DNA of 64,000 nt, from assembly GCA_018713745.1 (NCBI GenBank), contig DVOH01000013.1:13959-77958 (forward strand). The letters run 5' to 3'. The DNA comes from Candidatus Stercoripulliclostridium merdipullorum. Lineage in GTDB: Bacteria; Bacillota; Clostridia; Christensenellales; DTU072. Shown here one piece after another: positions 39,156-49,833 of this stretch. Position 1 is the first letter of the stretch. Every line of letters begins with the position of its first letter. The translations under genes were made by a program, and so were the position numbers. The notes under the pieces are model-generated. The model was not told the origin of the DNA. It was given only the letters and a program-made list of their open reading frames with translations, and searched no databases.

Positions 39156-40688
39156 GCAAGCGGCAAACTGTTCCGCGCCGTCACCGTCGTCACAATGTTT
39201 TCGGTGATCACGCGCGCCCTTTCGTTCCTGTTCAAAATTTATCTGTCCCGCACGTTGGGCGCCGAGGTGATGGGGCTGTATCAGATTGCTCTGTCGATGT
39301 TCTTTCTGTTTTCGGCACTGTCGGCAAGCGGACTGCAGACCGTCCTCTCCCGCAAAACCGCCGAGCTCCGTGCCGTCGGCAAAACCGAAAATATATTTAC
39401 ACTGTTTTCGGCAACCTTTTTGATCGGATCGGGAATCGCAACAGCCACGTTTCTGATTATCTTACTTTGCCGCCCCATTCTGCCCGACCTGATGTCGGAC
39501 GCAAGAAGCATCCCGCTGTTTCTGCTGATGTCGCCCGCGTTGATTACCACCTGCATCTATTCGACGGTACGCAGCTGGTTCTGGGGCAACAAGCAATTCA
39601 CTTATTTCGGAATCACCGAAACGGTGGAAGAAGTCTTACGGATTCTGTTCACCCTCCTGTTTGTCTCGGGGATCGTGTCCAACATTTCGGGCGCATACGG
39701 CGTTGCGCTTGCCTTTACCGTTTCCGACGCCGTTGTCGCGCTGATCCTTCTTGTTTTGTATTTTGTCAAAGGAGGAAGACTTGCCCGCCCTACCCTTGCC
39801 GCCGCCCGCAGCGTCGCGCTGCCCGCATTGCCCCTTTCGGTTATGCGCGTTTTCGGGGGGCTGGTCGGCACCATCCTTGCTTTGATGCTCCCTGCCCGTC
39901 TGGTTGCAAGCGGCATCTCGGTCGCCGAAGCGACGGCAGGCGTCGGCAGAATCGCGGGGATGGCAAACCCCCTTCTGTTTGCGCCCAACGCCCTGATCGG
40001 TTCGCTTGCCGTCGTACTGATCCCGGAGATGAGCGAAAGCCGCGCCAAACAGAATTTTTCCGCGCTGAACCGCCATATCAACGGCGGAATCTCCTTCGGA
40101 ATCGTCGTCAGCGGACTCTTTTTTACCGTATACGCCGCACTCGGCATTCCGCTGACCGAACTTCTGTTTGCCGACACCCTTGCGGGCGAATATCTCCGTT
40201 ATGCCGCGTTTACGATGTTGCTGACGCCGATCAATATCGTACTCGGCAGTGCCCTTAACAGCATCGGCGCCGAAAAGGACTCTTTCTATTCGTTTGCCTT
40301 CGGCACCGTCCTGATGTTGATTGCGTTTTATTTCCTGCCGCGCTATCTCGGTTTGTACTCCGTCATCGCGGCAAACGCGCTGTATCAGATCGCTTCCATT
40401 GCCGGAAACGCTTGGTTTCTCGCTAAAAAAACAAAGGTGTCTTTCCGCTTCCCGCGCACGTTGCTCCTCGTAACGGTCATTGCGCTGCCTGCAATCTATT
40501 TCACCTCTCTCCTTTACGGTCTTCTTCGGGACGTCCATACCGTCCTCGCGTTGACGGTTGCCGCTCCGCTCGGCGCAGGCATGTATCTTTTGCTTTCCTA
40601 TGTCTTCGGACTGATCGAAACGGACGGATTCCGCATCTCTTCCGTTTTTCCGCGAAAAAAGTCGGTCAAACGTTTGCCAACCCCCTGA
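39153..40688 (+). CDS. SpoVB-like MOP/MATE-superfamily flippase (oligosaccharide flippase family)
   Basis: ITRALSFLFKIYLSRTLGAEVMGLYQIAL...SG; about 14 hydrophobic segments; SLAVVLIPEMSE. Start moved to ATG at 39153. Confidence 0.8.
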   Translation: MASGKLFRAVTVVTMFSVITRALSFLFKIYLSRTLGAEVMGLYQIALSMFFLFSALSASGLQTVLSRKTAELRAVGKTENIFTLFSATFLIGSGIATATFLIILLCRPILPDLMSDARSIPLFLLMSPALITTCIYSTVRSWFWGNKQFTYFGITETVEEVLRILFTLLFVSGIVSNISGAYGVALAFTVSDAVVALILLVLYFVKGGRLARPTLAAARSVALPALPLSVMRVFGGLVGTILALMLPARLVASGISVAEATAGVGRIAGMANPLLFAPNALIGSLAVVLIPEMSESRAKQNFSALNRHINGGISFGIVVSGLFFTVYAALGIPLTELLFADTLAGEYLRYAAFTMLLTPINIVLGSALNSIGAEKDSFYSFAFGTVLMLIAFYFLPRYLGLYSVIAANALYQIASIAGNAWFLAKKTKVSFRFPRTLLLVTVIALPAIYFTSLLYGLLRDVHTVLALTVAAPLGAGMYLLLSYVFGLIETDGFRISSVFPRKKSVKRLPTP

Positions 40689-41767: not shown

Positions 41768-42426
41768 GCTCCCACCTCCTCGACAAAAAACGCGCCTTCC
41801 TTGGGTTGGACAAACAGCTTTTTCCCCTCCGTCGTCAACAATACGATATCCTTGACATTCAACCCTTTGCGATTGAGATACGCGTCGATTTCCTCTTTTT
41901 TTCTGCCGCAAACCGAAAAATTACAGTCAATGTGCCGCCCCTCGACAATCAGTCCGACGGGGACCGACTGCGGAACGGGCGCGCCTTCGCGTTCGAGAAC
42001 CGAAACGTTGCCGTTGGTCTCGACAATGGCGTACGCAACCTGTTCGACGCTGAAGTATCCGGCATTCCGAATACTTTCGAGAAGATCGTTGACGTTCATA
42101 TTGAGTTTTTTGAGATTTTCGGAATTGATGCCGTCCCGATCGACGACAATCATCGGCTTCCCGTTCAGCACTTTGCGGAAGCGGACGGATTTGGTCGACA
42201 ACAGCGTCATAAAATAGTGCAACACAAACACCGTCAATACCGGAATCAATCCGTATACCAACGGGATCGAATTGTCTTGCATCGGCGTGCAGGCAAGTTC
42301 GGCAACCGCCAACGTGATGACAAATTCAAACGGTTGCAATTCGCCGATCTGCCGTTTGCCCATCAGGCGCAAGCCGAGCAGCAACAACAAAAATATCAGA
42401 ATGGTGCGCGTCAGAATTACCAGCAT
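41764..42426 (-). CDS. DUF421/YetF family membrane protein (spore inner-membrane type)
   Basis: LRLMGKRQIGELQPFEFVITLAVAELA, GKPMIVVDRDG...LKKL.MNVNDLLE.IR..GYF, AIVETNG..SVL. Confidence 0.88.
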   Translation of the reverse strand: MLVILTRTILIFLLLLLGLRLMGKRQIGELQPFEFVITLAVAELACTPMQDNSIPLVYGLIPVLTVFVLHYFMTLLSTKSVRFRKVLNGKPMIVVDRDGINSENLKKLNMNVNDLLESIRNAGYFSVEQVAYAIVETNGNVSVLEREGAPVPQSVPVGLIVEGRHIDCNFSVCGRKKEEIDAYLNRKGLNVKDIVLLTTEGKKLFVQPKEGAFFVEEVGA

Positions 42427-42460
42427 ACCCGTAGTATGCTGAAAGCGGAGGCAATTATCC
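42424..42460 (-). promoter_or_regulatory. sigmaG-like promoter, leaderless start of the DUF421 gene
   Basis: GGATA (42460-42456), 17 nt, CATACTA (42438-42432), CGGGT, ATG (42426); the -35 overlaps the uvrA stop codon. Confidence 0.65.
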
Positions 42461-45277
42461 CTCCAGCAAAGGCTTCAGATAGGCTCCGGTGAAACTTTGC
42501 TCGCATGCCGCAACTTCTTCCGGGGTTCCCGCCGCAACCAGCGTACCGCCGCCGTCCCCGCCCTCGGGTCCGAGATCGACGATATAATCGGCAACTTTGA
42601 CGACGTCGAGATTGTGTTCGATGACGATGACGGTATTGCCGCCGTCGGTCAGGCGTTGCAGAATGGCAATCAACTTGGCGACGTCGTGCACATGAAGCCC
42701 CGTTGTCGGTTCGTCCAGAATGTACAGAGTCTTGCCCGTACTGCGCTTGCTGAGCTCGGTCGCAAGCTTGACCCGTTGCGCTTCTCCTCCGCTTAAGGTG
42801 GTCGAGGGCTGGCCCAGTTTGATGTAACCCAGTCCTACGTCTTTCAGGCATTTGATCTTGGAATAGATCTGCGGCACGTTTTCAAAAAACACGCAGGCAT
42901 CGTCCACCGTCATTTCCAAAACGTCGTAAATATTTTTTCCTTTATAACGGACTTCGAGCGTTTCGTGATTATACCGCTTTCCGTCGCAGACTTCGCACGG
43001 AACGTAAACGTCGGGCAAAAAGTGCATTTCGATTTTGATAATCCCGTCGCCCGAACAATTTTCGCACCGTCCCCCCGCGACGTTGAAAGAAAAACGCCCC
43101 GCTTTGTATCCTCTCGCCTTGGCGTCCTGCGTCATCGCAAACAGCTCGCGGATGGGCGTAAACACGCCGGTATAAGTTGCGGGGTTACTCCGCGGCGTTC
43201 TGCCGATCGGACTTTGATCGATATTGATAATCTTGTCGAAATACTCCGAACCCTCGATGGCGTCGTACTTCCCTTTGGTCTGCGTCGCATTGTTGAGACG
43301 GTTGGCAAGCGCGGGCGACACGATTCCGTTGACCAGCGACGATTTGCCGCTGCCCGACACCCCCGTCACCGCCGTCATCAGCCCGACAGGGAAGGATACG
43401 TCGATCCCTTTGAGATTGTTCTGCCTTGCCCCCCTTACCGTCAGAAATCTGCCGTCCTGCGGTCTGCGACGGTCGGGAAGCGGAACCGATTTCCGTCCCG
43501 CAAGATAGTCCCCCGTCAAAGAGTCGGGACAAGCCATGATTTCTTCCACCGTCCCTTCGGCAACCAAATATCCGCCGTTGACCCCGGCTCCGGGTCCGAT
43601 GTCCACGATGTGATCGGCGGCACGAATGGTCTCGTCGTCATGTTCGACGACGATCAGCGTATTGCCCAGATCGCGCAGGCGCAACAAAGTATTCAGCAGT
43701 TTTCGGTTGTCGCGCTGATGCAATCCGATACTCGGCTCGTCGAGGATATACAAGACACCCGTCAGTCCGCTGCCGATTTGCGTGGCAAGGCGGATCCGTT
43801 GCGACTCACCCCCGCTCAGCGTTCCCGCCGACCGCGAAAGGGTCAGATACCCAAGCCCGACGTCGACCAAAAATCTGAGCCGCTCCCGGATTTCTTTGAC
43901 AATCGGTTCGGCAATCGTCGCTTCCCGTCGATTCAGGGACAGGTTTGCCATAAACGCCGCAAGATCGACAACGGGCATTTCCGAGAGTTCCGCGATGTTT
44001 TTGCCGCCTACCGTTACGGCAAGGACTTCCTTCTTCAGGCGTTTCCCGTGGCAGACTTCGCAAGGATAAGACGTCATCAGTCGCTCGATGTCGGCTTTGA
44101 CGGCATCCGATTGCGTTTCGTTGTAACGGCGATTGAGATTGTTGACGATCCCTTCGAATCTGCTTTCGTACTGCGCGCTCATCCGCTTGGACTCCCATCG
44201 AAGCGAAAGCGTCTCTCCTCCCGTCCCGTACAGAATGATGTGACGGATCCGCTCCGGAAGATCCTTCCAGGGCGTATCGAGAGAAAATCCGTACTTCTCG
44301 GACAGCGCGCGGAACTGCATTTCCGCCATCTTGCCGAAATCCATCAGCATCCAGCCCGAAACGCGGATGGCACCCGCCCGCAAAGACAGCTCGGGATATT
44401 TGACGACCTTATCGGGATCGACTTCGCTGCGAAAGCCCAGTCCCATACAGTTGGGACACGCCCCGTACGGCGCGTTGAACGAAAACATGCGCGGGGTCAG
44501 TTCGGGCATCGACACGTCGCAATCGGGACAGGCATATCGGGTTGAGAACAACGTTTCTTCCCCTTCGCAATCGACGGCAACCAGTCCGTCGGCAAGTTTG
44601 AGCGCGGCTTCGACGCTGTCGGTCAGTCGACGGGACATCCCCTCTTTGACGACCAGACGGTCGACTACAACCGAAATCGTATGTTTGACGTTTTTGTCCA
44701 GGTTGATTTCTTCATCGAGCGTATAAACGATCCCGTCGATTTTGACGCGCAGATATCCGCTCTTTTTCAGCGATTCCAGCTGTTTGACGTACTCGCCCTT
44801 TCTGCCGCGCACGATGGGAGCAAGCAACAAAATTTTGCTTCCCGCGGGGTAAGCCATGATTTTTTCGGTGATCTGATCGACGCTGATGCGTCTGACTTCC
44901 TTTCCGCAAATCGGACAATGCGGTATCCCAATATTGGCAAACAGGAGCCTGAAATAGTCATAAATCTCGGTCACCGTCCCGACTGTGGAACGGGGATTCT
45001 TGCTGGTCGTCTTTTGATCGATGGCAATGGCGGGCGAAAGTCCGTCGATGCTTTCGACGTTGGGTTTGTCCATCTGCCCGAGAAACTGTCTGGCATAGCT
45101 CGACAAACTTTCGATATAGCGGCGTTGACCTTCGGCAAACAGCGTGTCGAAGGCAAGCGAAGACTTGCCGCTTCCGCTCAGCCCCGTAAACACGACCAGC
45201 TTGTCGCGCGGAATCGTGACGTCGAGATTTTTGAGATTGTGTACTTTTGCACCTTTGATTACGATACGGTCTTTCAT
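42455..45277 (-). CDS. uvrA: Excinuclease ABC subunit A
   Basis: [14 protein letters not shown], zinc-finger cysteines, [37 protein letters not shown]. Confidence 0.99.
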
Positions 45278-45288
45278 AGTGATAATCT

Positions 45289-47256
45289 TTATTTTTTGTT
45301 TCGTGCGTTCTTTAATGCCGCAATGCGGTCGCGCAAGACGATCGCCGTTTCAAAATCGTACGCCGCGCTTGCCTGCGCCATCAATCCGCGCAAACGCTCG
45401 ATTTCGGCACCGATCTCACGCTTCGACAATTTTTCGCTGTCCGCTTCGGCTTTTTTGCTGATCACCAGCGTGTTGGCAATGGGTTTTACGATAGTGCGCG
45501 GCTCGATGCCGTGCAGACGGTTGTAGGCTTGTTGCTTTTCGCGACGGCGTTCGGTCTCCTCCATCGCTTCGCGCATACTGCCCGTAATCGTATCGGCATA
45601 CAGGATGACGCGGGCGTCCTTGTTGCGCGCCGCCCGCCCCACCGTCTGAATCAGCGACGTGCGCGAGCGCAAAAATCCTTCTTTGTCGGCGTCGAGGATG
45701 GCAACCAGCAATACTTCGGGGATGTCCAGCCCTTCCCGCAGCAGATTGATGCCGACGATGACGTCGATCTCCCCTTTGCGCAATTTGGTAATGATGTCGA
45801 TCCGCTCCAACGTATCGACATCGCTGTGCATATACTGCACCTTGATATGCCGCTCTTTGAGATAATCGGTCAGACTTTCCGCCATGCGCTTGGTCAGCGT
45901 AGTGACGAGAACTCTGCCGTTTTCTTCGATCGCGGTGTTGATTTCCGAAATCAGATCGTCGATCTGCCCCTCTGTTTTCCGTACGGTGATCGGAGGATCG
46001 ACCAATCCCGTCGGTCTGATGAGCTGTTCGGCTACGTTTTGCGCGCGCTCCAGTTCGTACGGAGCGGGCGTTGCGGAAACGCAGATCATCTGTTTGATCC
46101 TGTGATCGAACTCCTCAAAATTGAGCGGACGGTTGTCAAACGCCGCCGGAAGACGGAAGCCGTAGTCGACCAGATTGGTTTTGCGCGCGCGGTCGCCGTT
46201 GTACATACCGCGCACTTGGGGAAGCGTGATATGACTTTCGTCGACGAACAAGACAAAATCGTCGGGAAAATAGTCCATCAGCGTAAACGGCGGCTCGCCG
46301 GGCTTACGCCCGTCGAAATAGCGGGAATAGTTTTCGATCCCGTTGCAGTACCCCATCTCTTTGATCATTTCGAGATCGTACGATACGCGCTCGCGAATCC
46401 GTTGCGCTTCGATCAACTTGCCGCGCTCTTCGAAATACGCCACGCGTTCTTTCATATCGGCGCGGATTTGTTCGAGTGTCGCTTCGATCTTTTCGTCCCC
46501 GACAACGTAGTGCGAAGCGGGAAAAATCGCGGCGTGCTTAAGCTCGGAAAGGGTCTTGGCACTCGTGACGTCAAACTCGACAATCCGCTCGATCTCGTCG
46601 TCAAAAAACTCCACGCGCAAGGCGATCGAACTGTTGCCGGACGGAAAAATCTCCAACGCATCGCCCCGTACGCGGAAGGTCGAACGCATAAAGTCGATAT
46701 CGCTGCGTTTGTATTGCACCTTGACCAGACGGTCGATCAGCTCGTCACGCTCGATCCGATCGCCGGGACGAATGCTGACGACGTTGCGATAATACTCTTC
46801 CGGGGCACCGAGACCGTAAATACAGGAAACCGAAGCGACAACAATCACGTCGTCCCGCTCGCCGAGAGAAGACGTTGCGGAGTGGCGCAGTTTGTCGATC
46901 TCGTCATTCAGGGCGATTTCTTTTTCGATATAAGTATCGCTGCGGGGGATATAGGCTTCGGGCTGATAATAATCGTAGTAGCTGACAAAGTACTCTACGC
47001 GATTGTGCGGAAACAGCTCGCGGAATTCGTTGCAAAGCTGTGCCGCAAGCGTTTTGTTGTGGGCGATGACCAACGCGGGCTTTCCGACGTTGCGGATGAT
47101 GTTTGCCATCGTAAACGTCTTACCGCTTCCCGTCACGCCGAGCAGAACCTGGGTTCGATCCCCCCGCATAAGCCCCTCGGTCAGGCTGTCGATTGCCTGT
47201 TGCTGATCGCCGCAGGGACTGTATTCCGATTGCAGTTGAAAACGATGATGTTCCAT
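45289..47256 (-). CDS. uvrB: Excinuclease ABC subunit B
   Basis: [50 protein letters not shown]-terminal UVR domain. Confidence 0.99.
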
Positions 47257-47618
47257 TATCCGATGATGGCGGCAATGATGACTTTGACCAGATATCCCAG
47301 CAAAGCAAACGCTACCGTGACAATAATCCGTTTGATGATTTTGCGACGGGATTTTTTCTTCTCCCGCTCATAACCCTTCCCCTTTTCGGTAAGAACGATA
47401 CAAAAAATCTCCTTTTCGTCACGCTTGGCAACGTCAAAGGCAAAATATCCGTCGATGGCAAGTGCCTCGAGGGTCGGTTTGAGATCGTCCTCGCGAAAAT
47501 CAACGCCGTACGGAATCTTCTGCAACAACTCCAGCGGCGTCAGCAAACATTGTCCTTCCGCCCCTGCCGCCGCATATATGACGTTCATCATGACTTTTTC
47601 TTTTTTGGAAATGACCAT
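47256..47618 (-). CDS. Hypothetical membrane-anchored winged-helix-like protein (second of a pair)
   Basis: [10 protein letters not shown]...FCIVLTEKG, then a basic stretch and a C-terminal TM helix; RBS GAGG; stop overlaps the uvrB start (TAATG). Confidence 0.7.
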
Positions 47619-47627
47619 AGACGCCTC

Positions 47628-48014
47628 TTATGCCAGCTGACCGATCAGAAATACGGCAAGCCCGATCAGTCCGCTCCCGAGCAACGCACCGAAAAACGCC
47701 GCCCAAAAAGAAGTTTTTGCCATGCGTTTGTAGTCAATCCGCACATTGATTGCGGTATCGGTAATCTTGTTGCGCTCGGTCTCGACCAACAATTTGCCCT
47801 TCGGCGTCACGGCAATGCAATACTCGGCGGCGCTCCGATACTTGATTGTCACCAGCCCCGTCAGGCTGAGATCGCGGAGTGCGTCGTCGACTTCGGCGTC
47901 GCCCGCCCCCGCAGGCAGTGCTTCTGCCATACGGGATTTGGAGATCACGACGGCGCCGCCGTCGGGTGCGGCGTCGGTCAGAAGTCCCAATAAAAGATTG
48001 CCGTAAGGATTCAT
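47628..48014 (-). CDS. Hypothetical membrane-anchored winged-helix-like protein (first of a pair)
   Basis: LRDLSLTGLV...YCIAVTPKG, then a C-terminal TM helix FWAAFFGALLGSGLIGLAVFLI. Start moved to ATG at 48014. Confidence 0.7.
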   Translation of the reverse strand: MNPYGNLLLGLLTDAAPDGGAVVISKSRMAEALPAGAGDAEVDDALRDLSLTGLVTIKYRSAAEYCIAVTPKGKLLVETERNKITDTAINVRIDYKRMAKTSFWAAFFGALLGSGLIGLAVFLIGQLA

Positions 48015-48049
48015 ACCGATATTATAGCACACGCGCCGATTTCCGTCAA
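48012..48049 (-). promoter_or_regulatory. sigmaA promoter (leaderless) of the wHTH-wHTH-uvrB-uvrA operon
   Basis: TTGACG (48049-48044), 17 nt, TGcTATAAT (48026-48021), ATCGGT, ATG. Confidence 0.8.
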
Positions 48050-48053
48050 TCGA

Positions 48054-48067
48054 CGAACAAATGTTCG
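48054..48067. promoter_or_regulatory. LexA (SOS/Cheo) box
   Basis: CGAAC-AAAT-GTTCG, an exact fit to the Firmicute consensus CGAACRNRYGTTCG, 4 nt upstream of the -35. Confidence 0.88.
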
Positions 48068-48115
48068 GCGGCAGTGACAAATTTCGATTCTACCCCCAAA
48101 CCTTCCCCCGTTTGC

Positions 48116-48144
48116 TTGTCGCACAGCCCCATTCGTGCTATAAT
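48116..48144 (+). promoter_or_regulatory. sigmaA promoter of the acyl-CoA synthetase
   Basis: TTGTCG (48116-48121), 17 nt, TGcTATAAT (TATAAT 48139-48144). Confidence 0.7.
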
Positions 48145-48171
48145 ATTCGATAACGCAAAAGGAGAACCGCT

Positions 48172-49833
48172 ATGAATCTGTTGCACAAATATCTCAACCG
48201 TACCGATTTCAAAGACTACCGTGACTTTGCCGACAACGTCAAGCTCAATCACGTCGATCAGTTTAACTTCGGATACGACGTTGTAGACGAATATGCACGG
48301 ATCGCCCCCGAAAAACGCGCCCTCGTTTGGTGCGACAAACACGGGGAGGAGCGCATTTTTACCTTTGCCGACATCTCGAAAGAATCCAACAAAATCGCCA
48401 ATATGCTGCGGGCGAAGGGACTGAAAAAAGGCGACTTCGTCATGACGATGCTCAACCGCCGCTACGAATACTATCTCGTCTGTGTCGCTTGTTGCAAACT
48501 GGGTCTGACCCTGATCCCCGCGACCTACCTTTTGACCGAAAAAGACATCGAATACCGTTGCAACAATGCCGAAGTCAAGGCGTTGTTCTGCATCAACGAG
48601 GACGAAGTCATCGAATACGTCAATCGCGCCACCCCTTATTGCACCACGTTGCTATATCGCTTCACCGTCGGAACGCGCGATGGATTCCTCGATCTGCATG
48701 CCGAATACGAAGGGTGTTCCGACGTCCTCGATTTGCCCCTTTCCGAGCGTCCCGCTCTCGGCGATACCATGTTGGTGTATTTCACCTCGGGGACAACCGG
48801 CTATCCCAAAATGGTAGCGCACGACTTCAAATACCCCTTGGGGCACATTATGACGGCGTATTTCTGGCAAGCCGTCGTCGACGACGGGCTGCACTTTACC
48901 TCTGCCGAATCGGGCTGGGCTAAATTCAGCTGGGGCAAAATTTACGGGCAATGGCTCTCGGGCAGCGCGGTATTCTGCTACGATTATTACGGACGCTTCA
49001 CGCCGACCGATCTCCTGCCGCTGATCGGCAAATACGGGATCACCTCGTTCTGCGCGCCCCCCACGATCTACCGCTTCCTGATCCGCGAAGACCTGTCGAA
49101 ATACGACTTCTCCTCCCTGGTCAGCTGTACGACGGCGGGCGAACCCCTGAACGCCGAAGTGTCCCGTCAGTTCTACAAAGCAACGGGACTGACCATCCGC
49201 GAAGGATTCGGACAGACCGAAAGCGCGGTCATTCTGGCAACGTTCCGCTATTGCAAGGCGGTTCCCGGCAGCACGGGACTTCCCTGCCCGATCTACGACC
49301 TCGTCCTCTTGGACGACAACGACGAAGTCGTAACCGGAACCGACTCGGTCGGAGAAATCTGCATCCGACTCAGCAACGATCAATTTGGGCTTCTGCACGG
49401 CTATCATAAGGATCCCGAACGCACACAAAACGCACTCGGCACCGGCTACTATCATACGGGCGATCTGGCGACGAAAGACAGCGAAGGCTACTTCTGGTTT
49501 GTCGGCAGAAAGGACGATATCATCAAGTCCAGCGGCTACCGCATCGGACCGTTTGAAGTCGAAAGCGCGCTTCAGGAACATCCTGCCGTACTCGAATGCG
49601 CCATTACGGGCGTACCCGATCCCCTGCGCGGACAGATCGTCAAGGCAACGATCATCCTTAACAAAGGATACGAGCCGAGCGACGAGCTGGTCAAGGAACT
49701 GCAAAATCACGTCAAACACGCAACCGCGCCATACAAATACCCCCGCGTCATCGAATTCGTCAAAGAACTTCCCAAGACGATCAGCGGAAAGATCAAACGT
49801 ACCGATATCCGCAAGCAGGACAAAAAGGCCTAA
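48172..49833 (+). CDS. AMP-forming acyl-CoA synthetase (short/medium-chain)
   Basis: YFTSGTTGYPKMV, TAGEPLN, EGFGQTES, YHTGD, FVGRKDDIIKSSGYRIGPFEVES, PKTISGKIKR. Confidence 0.93.
   Translation: MNLLHKYLNRTDFKDYRDFADNVKLNHVDQFNFGYDVVDEYARIAPEKRALVWCDKHGEERIFTFADISKESNKIANMLRAKGLKKGDFVMTMLNRRYEYYLVCVACCKLGLTLIPATYLLTEKDIEYRCNNAEVKALFCINEDEVIEYVNRATPYCTTLLYRFTVGTRDGFLDLHAEYEGCSDVLDLPLSERPALGDTMLVYFTSGTTGYPKMVAHDFKYPLGHIMTAYFWQAVVDDGLHFTSAESGWAKFSWGKIYGQWLSGSAVFCYDYYGRFTPTDLLPLIGKYGITSFCAPPTIYRFLIREDLSKYDFSSLVSCTTAGEPLNAEVSRQFYKATGLTIREGFGQTESAVILATFRYCKAVPGSTGLPCPIYDLVLLDDNDEVVTGTDSVGEICIRLSNDQFGLLHGYHKDPERTQNALGTGYYHTGDLATKDSEGYFWFVGRKDDIIKSSGYRIGPFEVESALQEHPAVLECAITGVPDPLRGQIVKATIILNKGYEPSDELVKELQNHVKHATAPYKYPRVIEFVKELPKTISGKIKRTDIRKQDKKA

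Follow-up and report, generated by a model that had tools for sequence, protein, structure and literature searches.

Two predicted tail-anchored winged-helix proteins encoded ahead of uvrB-uvrA in one order of gut Clostridia

An operon with two additional leading genes

We analysed a stretch of 64,000 nucleotides (nt) from Candidatus Stercoripulliclostridium merdipullorum (the window; contig DVOH01000013.1, positions 13,959 to 77,958), an organism found in chicken and bird gut metagenomes. In this window two small genes, here called A and B, precede the nucleotide excision repair genes uvrB and uvrA on the minus strand. A reading of the letters alone (the original prediction) had taken A and B for an SOS module encoding a membrane-tethered, DNA-binding pair. 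The analysis described here upholds a real, undescribed pair linked to uvrB, whereas the label 'SOS module' does not survive comparison with relatives and 'DNA-binding' is probably wrong. The features of the locus, with protein lengths in amino acids (aa), are as follows.

48067..48054, read on the minus strand as CGAACATTTGTTCG: Cheo/SOS box CGAAC-N4-GTTCG, putative LexA operator
48049..48021, minus strand: sigma-70-type promoter TTGACG-17-(TGc)TATAAT, driving A
48014..47628, minus strand: gene A, 128 aa; predicted tail-anchored winged helix, the fast-evolving paralogue, with a glycine-zipper transmembrane helix
47618..47256, minus strand: gene B, 120 aa; predicted tail-anchored winged helix, the paralogue with the conserved core
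47256..45289, minus strand: uvrB, 655 aa; Pfam UvrB_inter, UvrB, Helicase_C and UVR
45277..42455, minus strand: uvrA, 940 aa; Pfam UvrA_inter, UvrA_DNA-bind and ABC_tran

The Pfam domain models of UvrB and UvrA all scored far above their cut-offs. On the minus strand the region before A runs CGAACATTTGTTCG-TCGA-TTGACG-(17 nt ending TGC)-TATAAT-ATCGGT-ATG, with the -35 hexamer at 48049..48044, the -10 hexamer at 48026..48021 and the ATG of gene A at 48014. The promoter scored 11 out of 12 in a promoter scan and carries an extended TG; the SOS box lies 4 nt 5′ of the -35, at -53 to -40 relative to the inferred start. Gene B follows A after a gap of 9 nt and is preceded by an AAGAGG Shine-Dalgarno sequence, the stop codon of B overlaps the start codon of uvrB in the sequence TAATG, and a further 11 nt separate uvrB from uvrA. 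The promoter scan detected no promoter-like site within A or B on the coding (minus) strand, and terminator-like matches were no more frequent than in shuffled sequences (7 vs 9.8), with no convincing internal terminator in the operon. The original prediction had thus described the layout correctly at every step, including the co-orientation of A and B with uvrB-uvrA, their translational coupling and the lack of an internal terminator, and the check for a separate uvrB promoter inside A or B was negative. A single strong promoter drives A-B-uvrB-uvrA, with the putative LexA operator set against its -35 in this species.

The -10 box of A ends 6 nt 5′ of the ATG, which implies a leaderless or near-leaderless A mRNA. 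Distances of 4–8 nt between the -10 box and the ATG are seen in six genera (the window and loci L002, L003, L006, L012 and L016); the remaining A orthologues have ordinary Shine-Dalgarno leaders. The operon mRNA is probably leaderless in this species. A longer frame of A, initiated at a TTG and encoding 150 aa, was rejected because the promoter lies inside it and because 20 orthologues align from the ATG, with a conserved N-terminus (MNKKxLxVL...).

RNA contigs from three chicken/gut metatranscriptome runs cover parts of A (47753-47981), of B (47393-47559) and of uvrB. These contigs were assembled from untreated gut samples and so report on expression rather than on the position of the 5′ end; they show that A, B and uvrB are expressed in vivo without imposed damage. 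All stop short of anything upstream of 47981, which is weak evidence for a start near the ATG: their extent is compatible with such a start without proving it.

Distribution and linkage to uvrB

Neither protein had a significant match in Pfam, NCBIfam, PHROGs or PADLOC, or in sequence profile searches of the PDB, where the best match for B was the PCI winged helix of eIF3a (E 0.04). Word-based homologue searches returned near-identical proteins only, and homologues were gathered by whole-genome and profile searches. A hidden Markov model of B matched 229 clusters among 1.84 billion representative proteins; among the matches listed nearly all were 117–125 aa in length, and named members of the family are annotated 'hypothetical protein' without exception. 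A literature search found no published description of the A/B pair. A and B are an undescribed protein family missing from current libraries, as the original prediction had supposed.

B is present in 24 of 41 related genomes. Related contigs carry the names Candidatus Stercoripulliclostridium, Christensenellaceae, Catabacter and 'Clostridia bacterium', the last being metagenome-assembled genomes (MAGs). When 300 genomes sampled across the class were searched, 10 matches to B were obtained, all in the organism's own order, against one weak match elsewhere, to a PadR regulator. The pair is therefore confined to one order of Clostridia (Christensenellales-type MAGs).

The order A-B-uvrB was found in all 20 of the relatives' loci that were fetched, which span 16 genera of the family and include one locus from a second family, and in 16 of them B either overlaps uvrB or is separated from it by no more than 12 nt. 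Adjacency to uvrB, which the original prediction had proposed as a check, is in this way borne out. The genes on the other side differ from locus to locus: an acyl-CoA synthetase in either orientation, a homoserine dehydrogenase, an Xre-type gene (assigned by sequence pattern) and other open reading frames. A was found alongside B in nearly all loci. The arrangement A-B-uvrB is retained in the distant members L036, L061 and L062; at L069 the order is A-uvrB with B divergent, so that both genes are still at uvrB. Even in genomes of ~0.8-1.0 Mb, B lies 2 nt 5′ of uvrB, with A divergent nearby. Reduced genomes with B beside uvrB are G090, G123, G153, G181, G208 and G338 (family f19), all rated ~100% complete; the family f19 genomes look like strongly reduced Christensenellales-type lineages.

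Fold, topology and PadR ancestry

Single-chain AlphaFold2 models of A and B were built from 20-sequence alignments. The model of A (predicted local distance difference test, pLDDT, 90.4) has the order H-b-H-H-b-b (H, helix; b, strand) followed by a long C-terminal helix, and that of B (pLDDT 83.4) the order H1-b1-H2-H3-b2-b3 with a long helix reaching the C-terminus. In Foldseek searches of the PDB the two models matched winged-helix regulators exclusively: PadR, LmrR, Rv3488 and MecI for B, with TM-scores of 0.55-0.68, and MarR, MepR, BpsR and small ArsR/HxlR-like proteins for A, which also matched PadR winged helices. A viral fold library returned generic winged-helix matches only. A and B share 25% identity by BLASTP (E 0.002), and their profiles align over the winged helix with a probability of 94.9% (hhalign, E 4.7e-8); judged on these comparisons, they are paralogues. 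They also have a common layout, in which YCIAVTPKG in A and FCIVLTEKG in B are followed by a basic stretch and a C-terminal hydrophobic helix.

Each protein has exactly one hydrophobic segment, which makes up its final ~23 residues and reaches, on average, a Kyte-Doolittle maximum of 2.2-2.3 over 19 residues; there is none in the first 80 residues of A or B. The median number of residues beyond the segment is 3.5-4 across the A and B families, and the net charge preceding it is +2.1 in A and +5.0 in B. As the only hydrophobic segment is C-terminal, preceded by positive charge and followed by few residues, A and B are predicted to be tail-anchored with the N-terminus inside and essentially nothing outside the cell. 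The winged-helix fold, the shared layout and the single C-terminal transmembrane helix had all been proposed in the original prediction, and each is supported here. The transmembrane helices carry conserved faces: in A a glycine zipper with small residues at 106, 109, 110, 113 and 114 in 19-20 of 20 sequences, forming a stripe of pairs (105/106, 109/110, 113/114), and in B the face T/A101-A105-S/G108-K/R112. This pattern of conservation points to specific helix-helix packing rather than to generic anchors, and a heterodimer of A and B is a reasonable prediction.

The two proteins evolve at different rates, mean column identity being 60% for B (20 genera) vs 33% for A, whose linker also varies in length. 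At one locus (L015, genome G023) A has a Glu/Lys/Ala-rich insert of ~45 aa between the winged helix and the transmembrane helix, and in three B-family proteins (P0100, P0119 and P0131) the winged helix is interrupted by insertions of 60-90 aa. Such inserts imply that linker and loop lengths are free to vary.

The weak PadR match obtained in the sample of 300 genomes, the only match of the B profile outside the order, gives an indication of ancestry. The B profile aligned to that PadR protein with a probability of 94.6% (hhalign, E 7e-8), such that PadR GYEI...EGTIYPILRRLTKDGYF corresponds to B PlEIL...E-DLePxLxaLxxDGYF. A and B also have a winged helix with a long alpha2-alpha3 loop in the AlphaFold2 models, a feature of the PadR-type fold, and the short subfamily-2 PadR proteins (LmrR, Rv3488, CdPadR_0991) resemble B in combining a winged helix with one long C-terminal helix. 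B is a remote PadR relative or derivative by ancestry. There are clear differences: the C-terminal helix of PadR proteins serves for dimerisation, whereas A and B have a basic stretch and a transmembrane anchor in its place, and PadR proteins are homodimers whereas A and B are two diverged paralogues. The PadR model PF03551 gave no match at E values up to 1 with 20 B and 20 A members.

In B. subtilis PadR, the DNA-binding residues conserved family-wide are Tyr20, Tyr42 and Lys67 (PMC5728393). In the hhalign alignment the equivalent of Tyr20 (GYE motif) is Leu, Ile or Met in B and that of Tyr42 (GTIYP motif) is Glu, Gln, Lys or Ala; the equivalent of Lys67 is ambiguous, and B no longer has the Arg-Arg of helix 3. 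Because it fails both the family sequence model and the DNA-binding triad, we do not file B as a PadR regulator. Averaged over the sequences, the net charge of helix 3, which occupies the recognition position, is -2.9 for B and -2.5 for A; in B its third position, at the N-terminal end, is Asp or Glu in 20 of 20 sequences, and the entire winged-helix domain of A has a mean net charge of -5.8. With the PadR tyrosines replaced and helix 3 acidic in both families, canonical major-groove reading and sequence-specific DNA binding are both unlikely for A and B, and the DNA-binding pair of the original prediction is probably wrong. The pair is a clear example of a PadR transcription-factor fold turned into a tail-anchored domain, one that probably lacks DNA binding.

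LexA control and possible roles

LexA control of uvrBA is in itself ordinary in Clostridia. The uvrBA/dinA operon of B. subtilis is repressed by LexA. In C. difficile, LexA control of uvrBA is established (PMC4234289). The window resembles the LexA-repressed uvrBA operons of Firmicutes in having a GAAC-N4-GTTC operator at the uvrB-uvrA promoter and a lexA gene in the genome. It differs from them in its two extra leading genes, its probably leaderless mRNA and the occurrence of the operator in 2 of the 20 loci.

Perfect boxes number two in the 1.73-Mb genome, against ~1.8 expected by our own composition estimate, the other copy lying inside a coding frame that resembles gyrB/parE by the look of the frame only; in the window, boxes with one mismatch or fewer are at chance level (7 vs 6.1 expected). 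The perfect box on its own is thus within chance, and its position against the -35 of the uvrBA promoter is beyond chance, with a probability of ~1e-4 for an 80-nt target (our own estimate). Among contigs of four strains, each from its own study, the variable intergenic sites (9/9) are all located within 48096-48148 and none within 48014-48067, a split expected by chance with a probability of ~0.02, again by our own estimate. The genome has lexA, on contig C20, and the only box of this lexA is AAAACTTTTGTTTG, over a -35 (G000:C20:4050-4260); the same region has two CGAACCGT half-sites in direct orientation, separated by 52 nt. The lexA promoters of other families of the order carry CGAAC-N4-GTTTG and CAAAC-N4-GTTTG boxes, and when loci L041-L044, L050 and L053 are viewed together with the organism's own lexA, CAAAC-N4-GTTTG stands beside CGAAC-N4-GTTYG in the order. 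The lexA promoter boxes yield a relaxed consensus, CRAAC-N4-GTTYG. Elsewhere in the genome (G000:C37:60540-61130), TTGACA-17-TATACT is followed after 13 nt by AGAACAAATGTTCG, a Shine-Dalgarno sequence and a gene whose 167-aa product is a phage-type regulator of the sigma/ArpU-like kind (phrog_36 with E 1e-9; Sigma70_r4_2 weakly). This regulator probably serves a prophage or phage-like element as a late activator under LexA control. As the box before A, at -53 to -40, abuts the -35, a LexA dimer bound there should block access of RNA polymerase, and we consider it probable that this box is a working LexA operator.

No canonical box was found before recA in this genome, where recA directly follows cinA. 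The near-perfect box CGAACAAATGTTCC (G000:C57:415-460) was rejected, since it forms the loop of a hairpin with a T-run behind it, an intrinsic terminator where a gene has its 3′ end; it stands as a caution for motif-only SOS predictions. A box-like site at window position 40157 was also discarded, since it lies inside coding sequence, and genome-wide scans allowing up to one mismatch are dominated by chance matches in coding regions.

The relaxed box was found in two of the 20 A promoters, at L001 and at L012, where CAAACAATTGTTTG lies 19 nt 5′ of the -35. A lexA gene was detected in 19 of the 25 genomes searched; three carriers of the pair, G008, G009 and G013, have no detected lexA. We infer that LexA repression is a species-level addition to the operon promoter and does not define the pair. 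The original prediction was right about the perfect box beside the promoter, and it is plausible that this genome has a LexA operator there; of the linkages it had expected in relatives, that to uvrB holds in all 20 loci fetched, whereas that to the SOS box is seen in 2 of 20 promoters although lexA is usually present, and 'SOS module' is accordingly not a fitting description.

The flanks of the operon may be noted briefly. A divergent promoter, TTGTCG-17-(TG)TATAAT (48116-48144, plus strand), drives an AMP-binding acyl-CoA synthetase gene (48172-49833, plus strand), and the strain variation is located mostly in this divergent promoter region, including the spacer of that promoter, not in the A promoter or SOS box. 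On the other side, the ATG of a DUF421 (YetF-type) gene lies 28 nt after the uvrA stop codon, with no terminator between them (42426-42470), so read-through from the uvrBA operon is possible; a GGGATA-17-CATACTA motif overlaps the end of uvrA.

Several known proteins invite comparison with A and B. ToxR, CadC and RodZ likewise have a cytoplasmic helix-turn-helix (HTH) or winged HTH domain tethered by one transmembrane helix, and RodZ uses its domain to bind a protein, MreB, rather than DNA. These proteins have sizeable extracytoplasmic sensor domains and HTH domains of the OmpR or Xre type, whereas A and B have ~4 residues after the transmembrane helix and a PadR-like domain whose fold matches are to PadR, MarR and MecI, not OmpR; lacking an external domain, the pair is not ToxR-like. 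ElaB, YqjD and YgaM are tail-anchored proteins proposed to hold the ribosome at the membrane, and share with A and B a soluble N-terminal domain and a C-terminal transmembrane anchor, but there is no relation of sequence or fold, and partner and lineage differ. By analogy, the working principle of the pair would most nearly resemble that of the RodZ or ElaB/YqjD tethers.

UvrB-UvrA is the only constant genetic partner of the pair, and both proteins have DNA-binding surfaces. For these reasons our favoured reading, which we put forward tentatively, is that A and B form a membrane-anchored protein-interaction module that acts as an adaptor or holding site for Uvr proteins. A and B would pack through the conserved faces of their transmembrane helices and through their juxtamembrane helices to give a hetero-oligomer, much as short PadR proteins dimerise through the C-terminal helix; duplication of a dimer typically leads to a heterodimer. 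In the complex, the acidic surfaces of the two winged helices would be displayed at a distance of a few nanometres from the membrane, where they could bind a basic partner, most likely UvrB and/or UvrA, and A and B might thereby dock, sequester or co-assemble Uvr proteins at the membrane. Translational coupling would ensure that A and B are made in fixed proportion to UvrB. A stricter form of this proposal, in which the pair would be a membrane receptor devoted to the UvrA/UvrB damage-search complex, we hold to be unlikely; here the DNA-reading face of a PadR-type protein would have become an acidic, possibly DNA-mimicking, protein-binding face.

A number of observations weigh against an adaptor for Uvr proteins. 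Fifteen genomes of the order have uvrB with no A- or B-like gene upstream, and G019, which lacks the pair, is a congener of the carrier G004; the pair is thus dispensable and has been lost repeatedly, yet it is tied to uvrB where present. At L063 the pair does not adjoin uvrB. In the first 470 residues of UvrB two columns separate carriers of the pair from non-carriers, and we judge these to be phylogenetic, with no pair-specific substitutions beyond phylogeny. Finally, gene linkage could reflect common expression needs and not physical contact. These observations would also fit A and B having a function unrelated to repair, for example in envelope or membrane homeostasis, and using the strong constitutive promoter of uvrB only because steady expression is needed by both, an arrangement that would also suit L037, where two genes lie between B and uvrB. 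On the other hand, uvrB is the constant partner while the upstream neighbours vary, the linkage has outlasted both the inversion of B at L069 and reduction of the genome to ~0.8-1.0 Mb, and the two coding regions overlap or nearly abut in most loci. We regard such hitchhiking as a rather unlikely explanation. That A and B make up a membrane-tethered, DNA-binding heterodimer, whether to keep damaged or bulk DNA at the membrane or to regulate transcription from there, is improbable in our view. The nearest folds are those of DNA-binding regulators (PadR, MarR and MecI), and basic patches are conserved in B both N-terminally (K-K-E-K) and in the wing-proximal, juxtamembrane linker (LKEKGxSYxRDKKxxRRK, net +6). 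These patches could make contact with the head groups of lipids or, in a non-specific way, with nucleic acid, a further point against a purely protein-binding role; the acidic helix 3 of both families, the replaced tyrosines of B, the negative charge of the A domain and the lack of any palindrome shared across the 20 A promoters all argue the other way.

YneA, SosA, ChiZ and SidA/DidA are SOS-induced membrane inhibitors of cell division, and like them A and B are, in this genome, small single-pass membrane proteins downstream of a LexA box. Since the known checkpoint proteins have no common fold, a new architecture is conceivable, and A and/or B might be damage-induced inhibitors with a role like that of YneA, SosA or SidA. 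The topology is the reverse, and the original prediction had already set these inhibitors apart by architecture: proteins of the YneA/SosA type have an N-terminal transmembrane segment and an extracellular C-terminal effector, whereas A and B have a C-terminal one and a folded cytoplasmic domain, with ~4 residues outside and no LysM or extracellular domain. In relatives there is no SOS link either, 18 of 20 orthologous promoters lacking the box, and transcripts are present in gut samples without imposed damage. A housekeeping role would suit the strong consensus promoter and the fixed coupling to uvrB. Opposite topology and the missing SOS link indicate that the pair is not YneA/SosA-like, and we consider a division checkpoint very unlikely. 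We give equally little credence to a membrane-sequestered regulator, in which the acidic domains would hold a repressor, a sigma factor or LexA and so tune uvrBA or other genes. The holding of regulators at the membrane is well established, anti-sigma factors being an example; both proteins are PadR-derived by ancestry, and their acidic surface could act as a DNA mimic. However, no gene for a candidate partner accompanies the pair, the pair occurs in the three genomes in which no lexA was found, and nothing specific speaks in support.

The proteins of bacterial nucleotide excision repair (UvrA, UvrB, UvrC, UvrD/PcrA and Mfd) are generally seen as a closed set, all of them soluble. The only earlier proposal linking this pathway to the membrane is a report that Uvr proteins are recruited to the inner membrane of E. 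coli in a UV-dependent manner (Lin, Kovalsky & Grossman, 1997; PMC146856, cited in PMC5007444), whereas later single-molecule imaging in E. coli gave no evidence for membrane recruitment of Uvr proteins (PMC5007444). A and B differ from that proposal in that it reportedly identified no tethering factor, and in that they are absent from E. coli.

In conclusion, the pair defines, irrespective of its function, a family absent from current libraries in an order of abundant gut Clostridia. If A and B do bind Uvr proteins, they would add a spatial layer to repair, and the old and contested claim that repair proteins move to the membrane after UV would be reopened and made testable with two small proteins. 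Were they to prove a receptor for the damage-search complex, they would be the first known factor to localise bacterial nucleotide excision repair to the cytoplasmic membrane.

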